NCBI GenBank assembly: GCA_964600515.1
Contig: CAZRKD010000028.1
Span: forward strand, 1-11,877
DNA length: 11,877 nt
Origin: an uncultured bacterium
GTDB lineage: Bacteria; Bdellovibrionota_F; JAHFAK01
Reading direction: 5' to 3'
Shown here: positions 216-11,877 of the stretch, piece after piece
How positions within the stretch are numbered: position 1 is the stretch's first letter
Layout: each line of letters opens with the position of its first letter
Notes under the pieces: model-generated
Databases searched by the model: none
Seen by the model: the letters and a program-made list of their open reading frames with translations, nothing else
What the model was told of the DNA's origin: nothing
Position numbers and translations under genes: made by a program

Positions 216-1081
216 ACCCAGAAAAGGAAAAACAGATTACTCGTGCTATGAAAAAGCTCATTCAAACTGAGCCTCGTCTCAATTTGAATGAGGTTCGTAT
301 CATCGTAGCTATAGAAAGGGCGATTGCGCGTCTGTCAACATTAACCGAATTGGCAAAACATTTGATATTTAAAGGTGGCTTTGTACTTCTTAAAAGTTAT
401 GAAAGTCTTCGTTTAACGAGAGATGCTGATGCTCTAGCCATAGTTATCTCGAAAGAAAAATTGAGTACTTTAGTTCAAAAAGCATTAGCAACTGATTTAA
501 AAGATGGATTGTGGTATGGAGATATTAAAGTACGAGAATTAACAAAACAGGGTGAATATGGTGCCTATCGTTTTGATTGTGCTTTCCAGATTGGAATGCC
601 TGATCAAAAAAAAGTTCATAAGCTTTCAAGAATCCATATTGATGTTAGTTTTAGCGATCGTTTGCCACGTAAGCCGGCTAATCAAGTTATGTCATCACTC
701 CTTGGACATGAAGAACCGGTGACATGGAGAATCTATCCTATTGAGTACATTATTTCAGAAAAACTTCAGACTTTCATTGATAGAGGATCTTCTAATTCAC
801 GTGCTAAGGATGTATATGACCTCATTTATCTTCTACCAAAGTGTACTGATACTGAAGCTTTATACGCTGCAATTAAAAGTACATTCGAAAATCGACACAC
901 GCAAATTCCCAGCTCATTTCTCAATCATGCAACTCAGTTTGATACGACAATACTTTCGCATGGATGGGCGGGCGTAAAAACACTCAAAGAAAAATCAAGT
1001 TTTGAAACTGCATGGGAAATGTTGATGAGATATCTTCAAGGCTTAGATAATTATATAAATATAAAAGGAGGAAAAGTATGA
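212..1081 (+). CDS. AbiEii/AbiGii-family nucleotidyltransferase (DUF1814-like putative toxin)
   Basis: 289 aa. The N-terminal 'HLIFKGGFVLLKSYESLRLTRDADAL' fits the pol-beta-type NTase signature GG-x13-DxDx, and a later 'IHIDVSF' supplies a third acidic motif, as in AbiEii. The start overlaps the upstream partial ORF (ATGA). Confidence 0.6.
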   Translation: MNPEKEKQITRAMKKLIQTEPRLNLNEVRIIVAIERAIARLSTLTELAKHLIFKGGFVLLKSYESLRLTRDADALAIVISKEKLSTLVQKALATDLKDGLWYGDIKVRELTKQGEYGAYRFDCAFQIGMPDQKKVHKLSRIHIDVSFSDRLPRKPANQVMSSLLGHEEPVTWRIYPIEYIISEKLQTFIDRGSSNSRAKDVYDLIYLLPKCTDTEALYAAIKSTFENRHTQIPSSFLNHATQFDTTILSHGWAGVKTLKEKSSFETAWEMLMRYLQGLDNYINIKGGKV

Positions 1082-1521
1082 ATTTTTTTGCTAAATTCAG
1101 CGACTATAGCTACGCACTCATGCGGATGGTCGTAGGTTTTATGTTTTCATTTCACGGAGTGCAGAAAATTTTTGGTATTTTAAGTGATTACCCGTCTCCA
1201 GCAATTGGAACACAAATGTGGTTTGGTGGATTAATTGAACTTATTGGCGGCTTTCTTATTATGGTTGGTTTCAAAACTCGCTGGGCGGCATTCATTACAA
1301 GCGGTATGATGGCTGTTGCATATTTTCAGTTTCATTGGAAATTTCAATTCAATACCAACTTTTTCCCCGCAATTAATCAAGGTGAGCCAGCAGTTCTTTA
1401 TTGCTTCATTTTTCTTTATATTGCTTGCAAAGGCAGCGGAATATGGAGTCTGGAAAAATTAGGTGCAGACCAACTCATGAACATATTTGGTATGGGGCAT
1501 ATCCCAATTCAAAAAGTGTGA
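1078..1521 (+). CDS. DoxX-family inner-membrane protein, with a 19-aa C-terminal extension contributed by a repeat element
   Basis: 147 aa with four predicted TM helices. It has the DoxX-like motifs 'MRMVVGFMFSFHGVQKIFG' and a near-terminal 'GSGIWSLEKL' (DoxX proteins normally end with G.G.WSLD). A strong RBS AAGGAGG lies 6 nt upstream, and the ATG overlaps the AbiEii stop (ATGA). The tail 'GADQLMNIFGMGHIPIQKV' comes from repeat copy 1. Confidence 0.7.
   Translation: MNFFAKFSDYSYALMRMVVGFMFSFHGVQKIFGILSDYPSPAIGTQMWFGGLIELIGGFLIMVGFKTRWAAFITSGMMAVAYFQFHWKFQFNTNFFPAINQGEPAVLYCFIFLYIACKGSGIWSLEKLGADQLMNIFGMGHIPIQKV
1462..1499 (+). repeat. Copy 1 of a 38-nt dispersed repeat (ggtgcagaccaacNNatgaNNNNatttggNatggggca). 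It forms the 3' end of the DoxX ORF.
   Basis: By manual alignment it is identical at about 34/38 positions to the reverse complement of 4853-4890 and at about 33/38 to the reverse complement of 7197-7234. A shared A-rich 5' flank (gaaRaaWta) precedes the copies at 1462 and 4853. Confidence 0.8.
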
Positions 1522-1565
1522 CATGCTTTTGGAAAAAAGTACACTCACTTTTCTACTCAATAAAT

Positions 1566-2078
1566 TCACTTTTGTGTAAAGCGAGAAATACTATCAATAT
1601 GTTGGGGAAAGTTCTGTAAGAGATAATTTCTTTTTCCTAATTCAAAATCTATAAACTCAAACCCAGGAGCAACGGTGCATCCGACAAGAGCATAAGAATT
1701 CTTATCAATTACTTCAGCTGCAAACCATGTCTGTGCTGGTATGATATGTTGAAAACAACTGGTATTGGTATTTCCTAATATGGTCGTCTTTAAAAGTCCT
1801 TGTGAATCTATTTCGTAGATTGTTAAAGGACTGCCTGCATAGAAATGCCAAATTTCATCAGATTTAATTTGGTGAAAGGCCGAGAAGTCAGCGCTTTCGA
1901 GTAAAAAATAAATAGTCGTACAAAAAACTCTATCCCCATTAAACCGTTTAGGAAGACCTTCTTGTGTAATGATTGCTCGCGATCTGTATACTTCACGATA
2001 ATACCCACCTTCAGGGTGTTTTATTAAATCAAATTTTTTGATGAGGAAGGCGGCCTCTTTATTAGTAATCATATTCAT
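1566..2078 (-). CDS. DUF985 / cupin_5-family protein
   Basis: 170 aa. The N-terminal 'LIKHPEGGYYREVYRS' and the '..FHQIKSDEIWHFYAGSPL..' block are characteristic of the DUF985 cupin family. It lies 4 nt downstream of the SPFH gene on the same strand, so the two probably form an operon. Confidence 0.65.
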   Translation of the reverse strand: MNMITNKEAAFLIKKFDLIKHPEGGYYREVYRSRAIITQEGLPKRFNGDRVFCTTIYFLLESADFSAFHQIKSDEIWHFYAGSPLTIYEIDSQGLLKTTILGNTNTSCFQHIIPAQTWFAAEVIDKNSYALVGCTVAPGFEFIDFELGKRNYLLQNFPQHIDSISRFTQK

Positions 2079-2082
2079 ATAA

Positions 2083-2958
2083 CTACCTTCTGTTTTCTTT
2101 CGTCTCTCTTATTACCGGCAGCACTCCTGCCATTTCGCCAATGACATTCACAAGTTCAGTATCAGAAGGAAGCACAATCTTAGCATTATTTTTTAATGAA
2201 TTCTCGACCGCTTGGATTTTTCGTAACACTTGGGCATTCCCTTTGAAATACGTTTCGGCGGCTTCGTTGACGAGCTGAATTGCTTGGGCTTCACCTTCTG
2301 CTTCGAGAATCTTTGCTTGTTTAATTCCTTCGGCCTTTTTGATTTCCGAGCGTTTAACACCATCTGCTTGTGTCTCAGCTGCAGTAGCAAAATCGATTGC
2401 GGCGATTTTTTCATTCTCGGCCTTCACAACTTTATTCATTGTTTCTTGAACATCTTTTGGGGGATCAATTTCTTTTAATTCAGTTCGCATGATTTCAAGT
2501 CCCCAGTTGTGTGTTTCTGTGGTCAGTGTTTTCAAAAGATCGGTATTGATTCTCCCGCGTTCGCTATTGGCAGATTTGAGACTCATTGTTCCGATGATGT
2601 TTCGTAATGTTGTGCGTGCTAAATTCACAATTTGCCAGCGATAATCATTAACTTTATATTGAGAATTCTTTACGCTTTCTTCATCGGTTCGTATTTTAAA
2701 ATATACCTGCGCATCGACTGTAGCATTGAGATTATCATTGGTAATGATTACCTGCGGTTCAGCATTCACCATTTGTTCGGTTGTATTTACAATGTAAATT
2801 TGTTGAATGCCGGGAATTATCCAGTGAAATCCAGGATGCGCAAACTTAGAATATTTGCCGAGGGTTTCGATAAGCGCTCTACTTGTCGGACGAACAATTC
2901 TAATACCGGACAAGAGAAATAAAATAATAATTCCAAGAAGAACATAAAAAATTGTCAT
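2083..2958 (-). CDS. SPFH/band-7 (stomatin/prohibitin/HflK-C-like) membrane protein
   Basis: It has an N-terminal TM helix (IFYVLLGIIILFLLSGI), an SPFH core, and a C-terminal coiled-coil rich in A/E/K (AENEKIAAIDFATAAETQADGVKRSEIKKAEGIKQAKILEAEGEAQAI). The ORF track starts at 2970 (MEVCM..). I prefer the internal ATG at 2958, because GGAGG lies 5 nt upstream of it and is embedded in the earlier codons. Confidence 0.8.
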   Translation of the reverse strand: MTIFYVLLGIIILFLLSGIRIVRPTSRALIETLGKYSKFAHPGFHWIIPGIQQIYIVNTTEQMVNAEPQVIITNDNLNATVDAQVYFKIRTDEESVKNSQYKVNDYRWQIVNLARTTLRNIIGTMSLKSANSERGRINTDLLKTLTTETHNWGLEIMRTELKEIDPPKDVQETMNKVVKAENEKIAAIDFATAAETQADGVKRSEIKKAEGIKQAKILEAEGEAQAIQLVNEAAETYFKGNAQVLRKIQAVENSLKNNAKIVLPSDTELVNVIGEMAGVLPVIRETKENRR

Positions 2959-3037
2959 ACATACCTCCATTGATTTTTAATTTGTATTATACGTACGATA
3001 TGTATACTGCAGAATTATTAAATACAAGGTTGAATGT

Positions 3038-3478
3038 ATGAACCGTTTTGAAATCATTATATTTCTTTTCTTTAGTTTTGCTTGCGGGATTGGTTTATAT
3101 ACTTTTTATTATGCCAAAGGAGCATCGTATTTGACGAATGATCCACAAGCATGTGCAAATTGTCATATAATGGAAGATCATTATAGTGCATGGCTCAAAT
3201 CGAGTCATCGAAATGTAGCTACGTGTAATGATTGTCATGCACCTCATGATATTATTGGCAAATATTTCACCAAAGCTTTGAATGGATTTAACCATAGTCT
3301 TGCGTTTACTACCGGACGTTTCTCTGAACCTATCAGTATTACAAAACGTAATCATGAAATTACCGAAGCAAGCTGTCGATATTGTCATGCAAATATTACG
3401 AACATGATTGATCATAATCCTTCGGCAGATCAATTATCATGTGTACGCTGCCATGCCAATATTGGGCATGCACATTAA
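3038..3478 (+). CDS. nrfH: Cytochrome c nitrite reductase small subunit NrfH (NapC/NirT-family tetrahaem quinol dehydrogenase)
   Basis: 146 aa with an N-terminal TM anchor and four CXXCH motifs (CANCH, CNDCH, CRYCH, CVRCH). The first is CXXCHxM, as in Desulfovibrio NrfH haem 1. It lies 9 nt upstream of nrfA. Confidence 0.85.
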   Translation: MNRFEIIIFLFFSFACGIGLYTFYYAKGASYLTNDPQACANCHIMEDHYSAWLKSSHRNVATCNDCHAPHDIIGKYFTKALNGFNHSLAFTTGRFSEPISITKRNHEITEASCRYCHANITNMIDHNPSADQLSCVRCHANIGHAH

Positions 3479-3487
3479 GGAGAAATT

Positions 3488-4852
3488 ATGAATAAAAGAT
3501 TAATGATGATTGGAATGATTATTGTTGGAGCTATCGGTGCGCTTGGTATAACGAGTCTTCTCGTTACTATCTTCGAGCGAAAACAAGAAGCAAAGAATCC
3601 CTTTTATCGCGTGGTAGAAATTACCGATGAAACTGAGGATGCATCAGTATGGGGCAAGAACTTTCCTCTCCAATACGATGATTACTTGCGCACGGTAGAT
3701 ATGGTACGAACACGATATGGTGGAAGTGAAGCAACTCCACGAACGCCAAGCAAAGTAGATCCTCGATCTATTGTTTCCCAATCAAAAATAGAAGAAGATG
3801 AACGTTTAAAAACGATGTGGGCAGGCTATGCTTTTTCAAAAGACTTTCGTGAAGAACGAGGACATGGCTTCATGCTTGAAGATCAGACATTTACCGGTCG
3901 ACAAAAAGCAAGTCCTCAGCCTGGTGCATGTATAAACTGCCATGCTTCAACATATGTTGCAATGAAGGAATTAGGCGATGGTGATATTAAGAAAGGTTTT
4001 GAGAAACTCAATTCACTTCCCTATGGAGAAGCTCGTAAGCATGTTAAACATCCTGTTGGATGCGTTGATTGTCATGATGCAAAGACTATGCAGCTTCGTA
4101 TAACACGGCCAGCATTTATTGAAGGTATGAGAGTACTCAAGGCATCTCAAGGAATAAAAGATTATGATGTAAATACAATGGCAACACGCCAAGAAATGAG
4201 AAGCTTTGTTTGCGGACAATGCCACGTGGAATATTATTTTAAAGGAAAAGAAAAGACGCTCACCTATCCGTGGCATAAAGGTTTAGCTATAGAAAATATT
4301 ATTGCATATTATGATGAAGTTGGTCATAAGGATTGGGAACATGCTGAAACGGGAGCTCCAGTTCTCAAGGCTCAGCACCCTGAATTTGAGATGTGGAATC
4401 AAGGAATTCATGCTCGTTCTGGAGTTGCATGTGCAGATTGTCATATGCCGTACAAACGTGTTGGCGCTCAAAAAATTAGCGATCATCATGTACGAAGTCC
4501 TTTACTCAATATTGCACATTCATGCCAGACCTGTCATCGTTTTCCAGAAGCTGAACTCAAAGCGCGAGTTGAGCTGATTCAGTCGAAAACTTTTGAACTG
4601 CGTAATCGTGCAATGGATGCACTTATGGCTTTGATAACTGATTTAAAAAATGCGAAGGCTGTGGGTACATCGCAGGATACATTGAAAAAGACATGGGATT
4701 TTCAACGTAAAGCTCAGTTCATGATAGATTTTGTCGAAGCTGAAAACTCAACTGGATTTCATGCACCTCAAGAAGCGGCACGTATTCTAGGAACTGCGAT
4801 CGATCTTATTCGCCAAGGGCAAATGGAGATTTATAAAATAAAAAAGAATTAG
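3488..4852 (+). CDS. nrfA: Ammonia-forming cytochrome c nitrite reductase catalytic subunit NrfA (pentahaem); CXXCH-type active-site haem
   Basis: 454 aa with an RBS AAGGAG 7 nt upstream. It has five CXXCH motifs (CINCH, CVDCH, CGQCH, CADCH, CQTCH). The NrfA signature blocks 'WAGY.FS.D..E.RGH' and 'FVCGQCHVEYYF' are near-identical to E. coli NrfA. The N-terminus has one hydrophobic helix acting as a signal or anchor. Confidence 0.88.
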   Translation: MNKRLMMIGMIIVGAIGALGITSLLVTIFERKQEAKNPFYRVVEITDETEDASVWGKNFPLQYDDYLRTVDMVRTRYGGSEATPRTPSKVDPRSIVSQSKIEEDERLKTMWAGYAFSKDFREERGHGFMLEDQTFTGRQKASPQPGACINCHASTYVAMKELGDGDIKKGFEKLNSLPYGEARKHVKHPVGCVDCHDAKTMQLRITRPAFIEGMRVLKASQGIKDYDVNTMATRQEMRSFVCGQCHVEYYFKGKEKTLTYPWHKGLAIENIIAYYDEVGHKDWEHAETGAPVLKAQHPEFEMWNQGIHARSGVACADCHMPYKRVGAQKISDHHVRSPLLNIAHSCQTCHRFPEAELKARVELIQSKTFELRNRAMDALMALITDLKNAKAVGTSQDTLKKTWDFQRKAQFMIDFVEAENSTGFHAPQEAARILGTAIDLIRQGQMEIYKIKKN

Positions 4853-5583
4853 TGCCCCATACCAAATGTAGTCATAAGTTGGTCTGCACCTATTTCTTCA
4901 ACAATTTTTTTTGCTGCATTGGCAGGTGTGCCAATTGCTCTTGGTGGCTTTGTGATTGGCCGGCCAATGACTAAAAGAGATGCGCCGGCTCTGATTGCTT
5001 CAGCCGGGGTCATGACTCGCTTTTGATCGCCAAGGGCTGCCCATTCGGGACGAACACCCGGGGTAATTTTGAGTAAATTGTCTAGATCGTGATGCTTCCC
5101 CAGTAATGTGAGTTCTTGAGGCGAGCAAATGATTCCATCACATCCAGCTAAGAGTGCATCTTGCGCAAATTGCAAAACTTTTGTTTGAGAAGACTCACCA
5201 AAAATATGATAAACAGTATTTTCATCAAGTGCAGTTAAAACAGTAACCGCAAGAACGAGTGATTGTCCTTTATTGGCAACCGCAGCTTTCATGGCTTCTA
5301 TGCCTGCTGATGCATGCACATTAAACATTTTAACCTTAAGCCGTGCAACTGATTTTGCCGCAGCTGCAACGGTATTTGGAATATCATCAAACTTTCCATC
5401 AAAAAAAATTTCTCCCCCGAGTGAATGAATACATTCGACGACTTGAGGAGCCCCCACAGCGGTGATTAACTCTAGGCCAACTTTAAAATATCCTACATGT
5501 GGGGCAAGACTTTCGACCAGCGATTTCGCATCATCTAAATTATCTTCATCAAGCGCGACAATAATTCTGTCTTTTGCGTCCAT
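4849..5583 (-). CDS. pyrF: Orotidine-5'-phosphate decarboxylase, with a 13-aa C-terminal tail derived from the repeat
   Basis: 244 aa with OMP-decarboxylase motifs 'IVALD', 'FKVGLEL', 'DxKxxDIPNT' and 'VIGRPI'. Its stop codon overlaps the nrfA stop (TTAG). The tail 'GADQLMTTFGMGH' follows the '..AAKKIVEEI' terminus typical of the family. Confidence 0.85.
   Translation of the reverse strand: MDAKDRIIVALDEDNLDDAKSLVESLAPHVGYFKVGLELITAVGAPQVVECIHSLGGEIFFDGKFDDIPNTVAAAAKSVARLKVKMFNVHASAGIEAMKAAVANKGQSLVLAVTVLTALDENTVYHIFGESSQTKVLQFAQDALLAGCDGIICSPQELTLLGKHHDLDNLLKITPGVRPEWAALGDQKRVMTPAEAIRAGASLLVIGRPITKPPRAIGTPANAAKKIVEEIGADQLMTTFGMGH
4853..4890 (-). repeat. Copy 2 of the 38-nt repeat (minus orientation). 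It forms the 3' end of the pyrF ORF.
   Basis: The reverse complement reads ggtgcagaccaacttatgactacatttggtatggggca, which encodes the PyrF tail GADQLMTTFGMGH. The repeat starts 1 nt after the nrfA stop codon. Confidence 0.8.
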
Positions 5584-5682
5584 ATTTCTATGGTTATTAT
5601 AGAAAAAAAGATTTTACAATATTTTTTTCACTTTCGTGGATAGTTTGACTTTATTTTTTCCGTATGTGAGAAGCATATTTCT

Positions 5683-6198
5683 ATGGAAACAACAAAGCAT
5701 GTTCGTCCTTCGTGGGATGACTACTTTATGGAAGTCGCCAATACGATTTCAAAGCGTGCTACGTGTGATCGCGGCCGAAGTGGCTGCGTAATTGCGCGCG
5801 ATAGTCATCTTCTTGTTACTGGCTATGTTGGTTCTCCAACGGGACTCGCTCATTGCGATGATGTTGGACACCAGATGAAGAAATTACTTCATGAAGATGG
5901 AACAATAACCAATCATTGCGTACGAACCGTTCATGCGGAACAAAATGCTATATGCCAAGCCGCAAAGCTCGGTGTTTCGATTGCAGGAGCAACATTATAT
6001 TGTCGAATGACTCCGTGTCGAGTGTGCGCGATGCTTATTATTAATTGCGGAATATCTCGAGTTGTGTGCGAACGGCGCTATCATGATGGAACTCAGTCTG
6101 AGGCTATGTTTAAAGAAGCTCACATTAAACTGGAATATAAATTTGATGAAGTCCAAAAGTATGCCAATCAGGCAGAAATATCAAAAACTATTTCTTAA
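5683..6198 (+). CDS. comEB: Deoxycytidylate (dCMP) deaminase / ComEB-family cytidine-deoxycytidylate deaminase
   Basis: 171 aa. It has the zinc-binding motifs 'HAEQNAI' (H-A-E) and 'PCRVCA' (PCxxC), and the N-terminus 'RPSWDDYFMEVA' typical of dCMP deaminases. Confidence 0.8.
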   Translation: METTKHVRPSWDDYFMEVANTISKRATCDRGRSGCVIARDSHLLVTGYVGSPTGLAHCDDVGHQMKKLLHEDGTITNHCVRTVHAEQNAICQAAKLGVSIAGATLYCRMTPCRVCAMLIINCGISRVVCERRYHDGTQSEAMFKEAHIKLEYKFDEVQKYANQAEISKTIS

Positions 6199-7027
6199 TT
6201 TCTAATAACGTTTTTCTTCTTGGCTTAAAATTAAATTCCTCGCCATTTTTCTTAATTGAAAGGTGAAGATCACCAAAAAGGCAGGTCTTAATTTCTGTTG
6301 GGTTTTCTCGTTCAAACAGTAAAAATTGTTCCTGAGATGCAAATCCCTTAAAGATAATTTCTATTTCAGGATAACGAACTCTACCCGATATTTCTAAAGT
6401 ATTGTCCACTTTATCACCACAGGATTTCATTTTAATGTTCAAAAAATTACTAAAAGGATCATTGAATTTGTATTCTTTGCCTTGAAAGTAGAGATACGCA
6501 CTTGCCGCCCACTTTCCAAATATTTTCGATGATGCAATTTCAAATACACTTTCTTTGTCATCAAAACCGCTCGAGCTTATGAGTGTCCATTGCGACGTAG
6601 AAAGCTTTTTTGCTTCATATGTTGCCCATGCAATGGGTGTGTGTGAGAAGTTTTTATTATTACACGTACCCTTTGTAATTAATCCATAATGAGATGTAAA
6701 ATAGGGTATTTGCGGTCTGAGCGTATGAATCCAGCGAGGAGTAAATTCGAATTCTCGCGTAGATAAATTAAAATGAAGATTGAGATTAACATCTCCCCAA
6801 GTTCCAAGAGCATCTTCTTTGGTCAGCTTCAAGGTATGTATTGATATCGTATTTTCATTAAATGAATATTGATTGGGTGTAAAAATTTCTTTGCGAACAA
6901 ATTGTTTTCCATCATCATGGGCAAATGCAGCTCGAAGAATCGGAGTTCCCTCTTTCACTATCCAATCAATCAAAAAAGCATTTTTTCCGGTTGAAGAAAA
7001 AATGTACCAAAATTTATTTGTTTTCAT
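6188..7027 (-). CDS. Hypothetical protein with no family recognisable by eye
   Basis: 279 aa, rich in K/N/F, with no TM helix or signal peptide and no motif I recognise. It starts 16 nt downstream of the tRNA-Ser 3' end on the same strand, with no clear SD. It overlaps the comEB 3' end by 11 nt (convergent). Codon usage is AT-rich and uniform over the full length, which supports it being a real gene. Confidence 0.5.
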   Translation of the reverse strand: MKTNKFWYIFSSTGKNAFLIDWIVKEGTPILRAAFAHDDGKQFVRKEIFTPNQYSFNENTISIHTLKLTKEDALGTWGDVNLNLHFNLSTREFEFTPRWIHTLRPQIPYFTSHYGLITKGTCNNKNFSHTPIAWATYEAKKLSTSQWTLISSSGFDDKESVFEIASSKIFGKWAASAYLYFQGKEYKFNDPFSNFLNIKMKSCGDKVDNTLEISGRVRYPEIEIIFKGFASQEQFLLFERENPTEIKTCLFGDLHLSIKKNGEEFNFKPRRKTLLEIKK

Positions 7028-7043
7028 AATTTACGCTTACATT

Positions 7044-7133
<90 letters not shown>

Positions 7134-7148
7134 AAAAATTAATAAAAC

Positions 7149-7176: not shown

Positions 7177-7196
7177 GCGAGAGGTAGTACAAAATA

Positions 7197-7234
7197 TGCC
7201 CCATCCCAAATGAGTTCATTTGTTGGTCTGCACC
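7197..7234 (-). repeat. Copy 3 of the 38-nt repeat (minus orientation). It is non-coding and sits between the divergent tRNA-Ser and ABC-transporter promoters.
   Basis: The reverse complement reads ggtgcagaccaacaaatgaactcatttgggatggggca. It preserves the same frame (GADQQMNSFGMGH) but is not part of an ORF: a TGA lies 19 codons upstream, with no start codon in between. Confidence 0.8.
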
Positions 7235-7238
7235 TTTA

Positions 7239-11830: not shown

Positions 11831-11877
11831 CTGTCTCTTATACACATCTGACGCTGCCGACGATCTTACGCGTGTAG
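11831..11877. other. Illumina Nextera adapter read-through: Tn5 mosaic end, read-1 adapter, i5 index and start of P5. A non-biological artefact.
   Basis: CTGTCTCTTATACACATCT (11831-11849) is the Tn5 mosaic end. GACGCTGCCGACGA (11850-11863) is the reverse complement of the TCGTCGGCAGCGTC primer tail. TCTTACGC (11864-11871) is the reverse complement of i5 index GCGTAAGA, which I recall as S517/N517 and which should be verified. GTGTAG (11872-11877) starts GTGTAGATCTCGGTGGTCGCCGTATCATT. Confidence 0.92.

Follow-up and report, generated by a model that had tools for sequence, protein, structure and literature searches.

A short repeat behind doxX and pyrF and the C-terminal tail that it gives two unrelated proteins in an uncultured bacterium

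In an 11,877-nucleotide contig of an uncultured bacterium of the Bdellovibrionota_F (CAZRKD010000028.1 of assembly GCA_964600515.1; here "the window" denotes this whole stretch), two unrelated proteins, DoxX and PyrF, end in the same in-frame peptide, GADQLM..FGMGH, which is encoded by two copies of a short repeat. The reading that we favour, to which we assign a probability of roughly 55%, is that the repeat is a lineage-specific interspersed element of about 40 nt that lies behind genes, and that the shared tail is a by-product of stop-codon loss. The two copies also bracket a block that includes the nitrite-ammonification genes nrfH and nrfA, and below we weigh this reading against the original prediction that the block is invertible and against several other alternatives.

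The repeat and the tail shared by DoxX and PyrF

The pattern GGTGCAGACCAACNNATGANNNNATTTGGNATGGGGCA has three exact matches in the window, at 1462-1499 (+), 4853-4890 (-) and 7197-7234 (-), which we refer to as copies 1, 2 and 3, and none of 200 dinucleotide-preserving shuffles gave a match to it. The consensus of the three copies, which are 38-42 nt long, reads GGTGCAGACCAAC-NN-ATGA-NNNN-ATTTGG-N-ATGGGGCA. Copies 1 and 2 are identical at 34 of 38 bases and their similarity reaches 47 nt at 87% (1453-1499 and 4853-4899); the longest identical runs between them are 16 and 15 nt, and the centre is the most variable part of the repeat. As had been predicted, copies 1 (+) and 2 (-) are inverted around genes for a cupin, an SPFH protein, NrfH and NrfA, and both open reading frame (ORF) translations show the same peptide in the same frame at the ends of DoxX and PyrF. 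Read in this common frame, the repeat ends DoxX with ...LEKLGADQLMNIFGMGHIPIQKV and PyrF with ...EEIGADQLMTTFGMGH, the tail peptides of the two proteins being ...GADQLMNIFGMGHIPIQKV and ...GADQLMTTFGMGH. Since four of the six reading frames through the repeat are open, the shared frame of copies 1 and 2 is unremarkable by itself.

Comparison with homologues shows that both tails are add-ons. Homologues of PyrF (7,749 matches, of which 12 were aligned) are about 235 aa long and end ...AEEISAVL*; the PyrF of the window, at 244 aa, parallels them to ...EEI and then continues with the repeat-encoded tail. In a full HMMER scan, the best 150 relatives of DoxX align only to about residue 126-131 of its 147 residues, and the DoxX orthologue in a related genome (contig L099 of GCA_023250585.1) is 127 aa long, with ...GIWSFDKK* as its C-terminus. 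At the 3' end of doxX, the DNA of the relative reads AAG AAA TAA, compared with GAA AAA TTA GGT GCA GAC in the window, and the extension looks like the outcome of a lost stop codon and read-through into the sequence behind the gene.

A simple course of events would account for these observations. The repeat copies sit immediately behind genes and are oriented with them, copy 1 behind doxX and copy 2 behind pyrF, and the relative's copy-3 orthologue likewise trails a gene, that for a DUF2238 protein, and precedes tRNA-Ser. Loss of the native stops of doxX and pyrF, in doxX through a TAA (relative) to TTA (window) difference and in pyrF through replacement of the last four codons and the stop, would have let both ORFs run into the open frame of the repeat and acquire the same tail. 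[quoted passage not shown] The block between copies 1 and 2 would have kept its ancestral orientation and be stable.

Could the tail instead be a selected coding module, that is, a functional C-terminal peptide common to DoxX and PyrF? Several of the differences between the copies are synonymous in the tail frame (CTC/CTT, GGT/GGG, CAT/CAC, ATC/ATT), as such a module would predict. However, copy 3 retains the same open "frame" outside any gene, with a stop in that frame a few codons upstream, and in two other populations (contigs L092 and L093) a G>T change at window position 1494, in copy 1, replaces a Met of the DoxX tail by Ile. Moreover, the tail is present in no DoxX or PyrF homologue among the 150 DoxX relatives and the 12 aligned PyrF sequences, and its two hosts are a membrane protein and a cytosolic enzyme, so that we find a selected peptide hardly credible.

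Table 1. Positions of the repeat copies and of the genes around them in the window.
Feature	Position	Strand	Remarks
Repeat copy 1	1461..1502, core 1462-1499	+	Last 19 codons of the doxX ORF; nhmmer E=5.5e-13
Repeat copy 2	4850..4891, core 4853-4890	-	Last 13 codons of the pyrF ORF
Repeat copy 3	7194..7235	-	Intergenic; 59 nt upstream of tRNA-Ser(gct), same strand
doxX, with non-homologous C-terminal extension (residues 129-147)	1078..1521	+	Pfam DoxX
Cupin_5 (DUF985) gene	1566..2078	-	Pfam; 4 nt downstream of the SPFH stop
SPFH/Band_7 gene	2083..2970	-	Pfam
nrfH-nrfA pair	3038..4852	+	nrfH (NapC/NirT-type) 3038-3478; nrfA (cytochrome c552) 3488-4852
pyrF, last 4 native codons and stop replaced by 13-residue repeat-encoded tail	4849..5583	-	Homologue alignment
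tRNA-Ser(gct)	7043..7134	-	Downstream of copy 3

Orientation of the segment between copies 1 and 2

According to the original prediction, recombination between copies 1 and 2 flips, or once flipped, the cupin-SPFH-nrfHA block and swaps the tails of the flanking genes, which would be why two unrelated genes share one. No inversion is required for either the tail or the arrangement of the repeats. For two genes to share the tail, it is enough that a repeat follows each of them and that the native stop is lost; and since doxX and pyrF lie on opposite strands and each copy is oriented like the gene that it trails, copies 1 and 2 are necessarily inverted with respect to each other.

To look for the second isomer, we used exact-protein look-ups, which returned eight contigs of the same organism (99.8-100% identity) from five other samples; one sample with this organism is a groundwater metagenome from the deep subsurface (10.1101/176263). 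Four assemblies (the window, L082, L083 and L092) span copy 1 in one and the same arrangement, two (the window and L082) do so for copy 2, and every contig that spans either copy is collinear with the others. Neither of the junctions that an inversion would create, doxX-nrfA or cupin-pyrF, occurs in the eight contigs of the five samples or in the window, evidence that is at the level of contigs rather than reads; at that level there is no alternative isomer. Nor is there a variant with a swapped tail in the 90%-identity clusters, of which that of DoxX has two members, both of 147 aa, and that of PyrF one, and a Pfam scan of the 15 substantial ORFs of the window found no recombinase, invertase, integrase or transposase domain. 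Judged against doxX and the gene for the dCMP deaminase, SPFH is oriented alike in the relative and the window, and the orientation of the block, being shared, is presumably ancestral.

The features that speak for an invertible segment are the inverted arrangement of the copies in a common frame, which would let both ORFs survive an inversion, and the contigs L093, which is bounded by copies 1 and 2, and L094, which begins within copy 1. Against it stand not only the collinear contigs, the lack of exchanged tails on record and the conserved orientation of SPFH but also the sequence of the repeat itself. RecA-dependent exchange in Escherichia coli has an efficient minimum of roughly 23-27 bp, longer than the 16- and 15-nt identical runs between the copies, while so variable a centre would ill suit a tyrosine or serine recombinase, and the 11.9 kb in any case contain no recombinase gene. 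Taken with these points, inversion, present or past, is very unlikely.

The ends of the contigs deserve separate attention. Contig L093 covers window positions 1489-4870, such that its two ends lie within copies 1 and 2, and L094 starts at position 1495, inside copy 1; together with those of L092, ends in or near the two copies fall at 1489, 1495, 4797, 4812 and 4870. By our arithmetic, 3 of about 14 contig ends lie in the 84 nt of copies 1 and 2, compared with about 0.1 expected. Identical stretches of 15-16 nt, as shared by copies 1 and 2, should not tangle an assembly graph, and the clustering points either to longer-matching copies elsewhere in the genome or to real structural heterogeneity at copies 1 and 2. 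It is a hint of such heterogeneity in natural populations of this bacterium, which lives in groundwater. That the repeat is a working recombination site, at which populations differ because the cupin-SPFH-nrfHA block is inverted, or is excised and inserted, nevertheless seems doubtful to us; were it true, the genes for nitrite ammonification would be part of a mobile or switchable cassette, with its recombinase encoded elsewhere.

Age, spread and likeness of the repeat

The repeat is older than the species in which we found it. In the related genome, an orthologue of copy 3, AAAGGTGGGGACCGACTCATGAACACAAAAAGTCAGTGGGGATGA (L099 8889-8936; nhmmer E=1e-8), is found on the strand of tRNA-Ser(gct), 63 nt upstream of it, and conservation of the copy at this site implies that the repeat family existed before the two species diverged. 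The 5' halves of the orthologous copies are 78% identical, compared with 53-65% at synonymous third positions, which hints at some constraint on this half; in the relative, conservation does not extend to the 3' half.

Such constraint would be expected if the repeat were a cis-acting element of the host, for example a protein-binding DNA site or a functional RNA element at the 3' ends of transcripts, whose similarity among copies is kept by selection. Conservation of the 5' half (AGGTG..GACC.AC..ATGAAC) across species above the level of synonymous sites, the consistent orientation behind genes, and a primary sequence that is conserved despite weak structure are all consistent with this idea. 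However, the repeat belongs to no Rfam family and has no terminator-like signature, no co-oriented gene precedes copy 3 in the window, the 3' half has diverged in the relative, and three copies are too thin a basis for such a role, which we consider unlikely on balance.

Searches for the repeat beyond the window returned little. A further copy was present neither in the window nor in L099-L102, nor in any other locus retrieved. The exact pattern was matched nowhere in IMG/VR, and BLAST of the copies against phages and plasmids gave no matches or matches at chance level. At E<=1, Rfam reported tRNA only and no repeat family (a hit to "Plastid-psbl-rps4 3'UTR" at 7044-7097 (+), below the gathering threshold, is the antisense of tRNA-Ser), and a scan for terminators and promoters identified none at the copies. 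By inspection, the two ends of a copy match at 8 of 12 positions (GGTGCAGACCAA compared with the reverse complement of TTGGTATGGGGCA).

Several observations weigh against a spreading interspersed repeat. Only three copies are visible in the 11.9 kb of genome and the contigs overlapping it. An exact pattern scan of the GTDB species representatives gave no match, and a scan of the JGI metagenomes recovered only copy 3 of the same organism; this metagenome collection is incomplete, lacking known contigs of the organism such as Ga0212128, which carries copies 1 and 2, and its near-silence therefore says little about the copy number of the repeat. The hairpin potential that defines REP sequences is weak and not consistently above that of shuffled sequences: in DNA and RNA folds of the copies the z scores run from +0.7 to -2.9, with -3 to -7 kcal/mol for DNA, and only copy 2 clearly beats its shuffles. 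There is no consistent target-site duplication at the three copies, the flanks being TTA/TAT, ATA/CTA and AAA/TAT. Finally, the clustering of contig ends described above is accounted for by the favoured reading only on condition that other parts of the genome hold additional copies.

Three further ideas about the repeats were considered and rejected. Homology of copies 1 and 3 does not extend into the tRNA-Ser promoter, as similarity downstream of the 42-nt unit is weak. The copies are too short to be the template and variable repeats of a diversity-generating retroelement; the differences between them are not specific to adenine, and no reverse transcriptase is present. Nor do they appear to be mini-ORFs (AGGTG-N11-ATG), as the relative does not conserve the peptides predicted from them.

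The repeat is reminiscent of several known systems, although the details differ in each case. REP sequences and REPINs, which are mobilised by RAYT transposases, are repeats of 20-40 nt found just behind genes, often between convergent genes, and are vertically inherited and retained for long periods at orthologous sites (PMC3116915; 10.1101/2021.07.10.451892). The window repeat differs in its weak palindromic potential, in the three copies seen, in the absence of a REPIN doublet and of a RAYT gene in view, and in that its copies overlap ORF ends and so are not strictly extragenic. In-frame fusion of small repeats with host ORFs has been documented for MITEs and for Rickettsia palindromic elements (RPEs) (PMC10969869), in which, as here, a small repeat forms an in-frame part of unrelated host proteins. 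RPEs, however, are about 100-150 bp long and lie inside ORFs, whereas the window repeat of about 40 nt extends the 3' ends of ORFs by way of stop loss, and unlike MITEs it has no evident terminal inverted repeats or target-site duplications. The repeat thus resembles REP sequences in size, position and persistence, and RPEs and MITEs in its in-frame fusion; these are resemblances rather than an established family membership.

Site-specific recombination systems offer further points of comparison. In inversion switches and shufflons (Hin/hix, Rci/sfx), short inverted repeats bracket a DNA segment and, in shufflons, the sites lie in 3' coding ends and C-termini are exchanged; the window differs in having no recombinase gene, a variable centre, tails of identical type and no second isomer in any assembly. 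Integron attC and Xer-dif sites are imperfectly symmetric and, in a similar way, occupy the 3' ends of tightly packed gene units, and by inspection the GACCAAC of the repeat matches the RYYYAAC inverse core of attC at 6 of 7 positions. Yet the repeat, at 38-47 nt, is shorter than attC (57-141 nt) and longer than dif (28 nt), and in contrast to attC it has only one core-like heptamer without a GTTRRRY partner, no intI or array, and copies in mixed orientations.

Gene turnover around nrfHA

To understand how the region was assembled, we compared it with the syntenic locus of the relative. This genome came to light through the 279-aa protein encoded at window 6188-7027, which has no Pfam domain and is highly lineage-restricted: among 5.8 billion proteins there is one other 90% cluster, 73% identical, and it lies on the 24-kb contig L099. 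Orthologues in the two genomes share 71-88% amino acid identity, the SPFH pair being at 88%. The order in L099 is tmk, holB, PSP1, tatD, DUF2238, tRNA-Ser(gct), GATase, hyp287, dCMP deaminase (-), X431 (-), SPFH (+), doxX (-) and BrnTA, where X431 denotes a 431-aa protein without a Pfam match that is encoded between the deaminase gene and SPFH. The locus lacks nrfHA, pyrF and the cupin gene, and DUF2238 and GATase stand where the window has an ABC-OpuBC pair. The region has turned over genes repeatedly, and each of these gains or losses could have run in either direction.

The cupin gene illustrates the difficulty. Of the 20 positions of the doxX-SPFH spacer of L099, 15 agree with the 5' half of copy 1, a match equalled by only 4.4e-4 of all L099 20-mers, and in our own alignment the spacer agrees with the region of the cupin start in the window at 15 of 19 positions with one gap. 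This spacer may be a deletion junction, in which case the cupin gene could have been lost there rather than gained in the window.

The original prediction had also proposed that the nitrite-ammonification module belongs to a rearranged or horizontally acquired segment. The history of gene gain and loss supports this in part, as the nrfHA block is absent from the syntenic locus of the close relative, but the deviant GC content or codon usage expected of a foreign block was not found: GC is 0.35-0.44 throughout the window, and both GC at third codon positions (GC3) and the codon-usage distance of the cupin, SPFH, nrfH and nrfA genes fall within the range of the other window genes. Homology to the SPFH promoter region of the relative stops just before the start of nrfH. 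We compared 80 loci of many other phyla whose NrfA is 67-75% identical to that of the window. Apart from nrfA, nrfH is the one gene that they have in common with the window; nrfHA travels there as a bare two-gene unit, and the repeat is in none of these loci. The contexts of PyrF and Nramp homologues (L095-L098 and L103-L106) are from unrelated lineages and carried no synteny information.

These comparisons bear on whether the repeat is a recombination scar or attachment site, at which cassettes (nrfHA, the cupin gene, the ABC/OpuBC pair) were inserted or exchanged and of which the tRNA-Ser copy would be the original. All copies adjoin segments that differ from the relative, namely the cupin gene, pyrF/nrfHA in place of X431, and ABC-OpuBC in place of DUF2238, and packing is tight, with the nrfA stop codon (4850-4852) directly against the inner end of copy 2 and the SPFH-promoter homology ending just ahead of nrfH. 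The bare nrfHA pairs of the 80 other loci and the clustered contig ends point in the same direction. However, the ORFs of the window include no integrase, the central region differs among the copies, the relative has the orthologue of copy 3 without the cassettes, and its doxX-SPFH spacer is possibly a deletion junction, with the cupin gene lost there. There is also no compositional sign of foreign DNA, and the loci most like a donor of nrfHA are without the repeat. We therefore judge an attachment site to be a rather improbable origin of the repeat, and we found no special mechanism that would mobilise the nrfHA pair.

Several other features of the region were noted. The stops of the convergent nrfA (TAG) and pyrF (TAA, minus strand) overlap within TTAG at 4849-4852. 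Upstream of doxX, an AbiEii-type toxin gene at 33-1081 follows a short ORF that is truncated by the start of the contig, with overlapping starts and stops; the AbiEii stop in turn overlaps the doxX start, and the equivalent place in the relative is taken by a BrnT/BrnA pair. NrfA (454 aa), PyrF and AbiEii returned no record when looked up as exact proteins. The start of the dCMP deaminase gene carries a 28-nt strain indel (window 5665-5692; L001 6254-6310) that results in differing N-termini, and two contigs terminate at this site. One ENA contig (L084, 6562-6802) tracks the window into pyrF and at window 5383 changes to trigger-factor-like sequence, a junction that reflects either a chimeric assembly or a rearrangement. 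The last 47 bases of the window (11831-11877) are Illumina Nextera i5 adapter (reverse complement CTACAC-GCGTAAGA-TCGTCGGCAGCGTCAGATGTGTATAAGAGACAG), and this contaminated contig end cuts holB; the adapter makes it probable that the assembly is a single-cell genome. The relative also carries two intergenic copies, at L099 4600-4715 and 8026-8142, of a near-perfectly palindromic MITE-like element of roughly 116 nt, which is unrelated to the 40-nt repeat.

If the favoured reading is correct, the window offers a clean small case in which a short repeat together with stop loss gives two unrelated proteins the same C-terminal tail, and such tails can be misread, by annotation pipelines or by readers, as a shared domain or as the trace of recombination. 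Similarly, short inverted repeats that flank an operon need not mean a switch; here, their orientation follows that of the host genes. The placement of nrfHA in a region of high gene turnover bears on the patchy distribution of nitrite ammonification.

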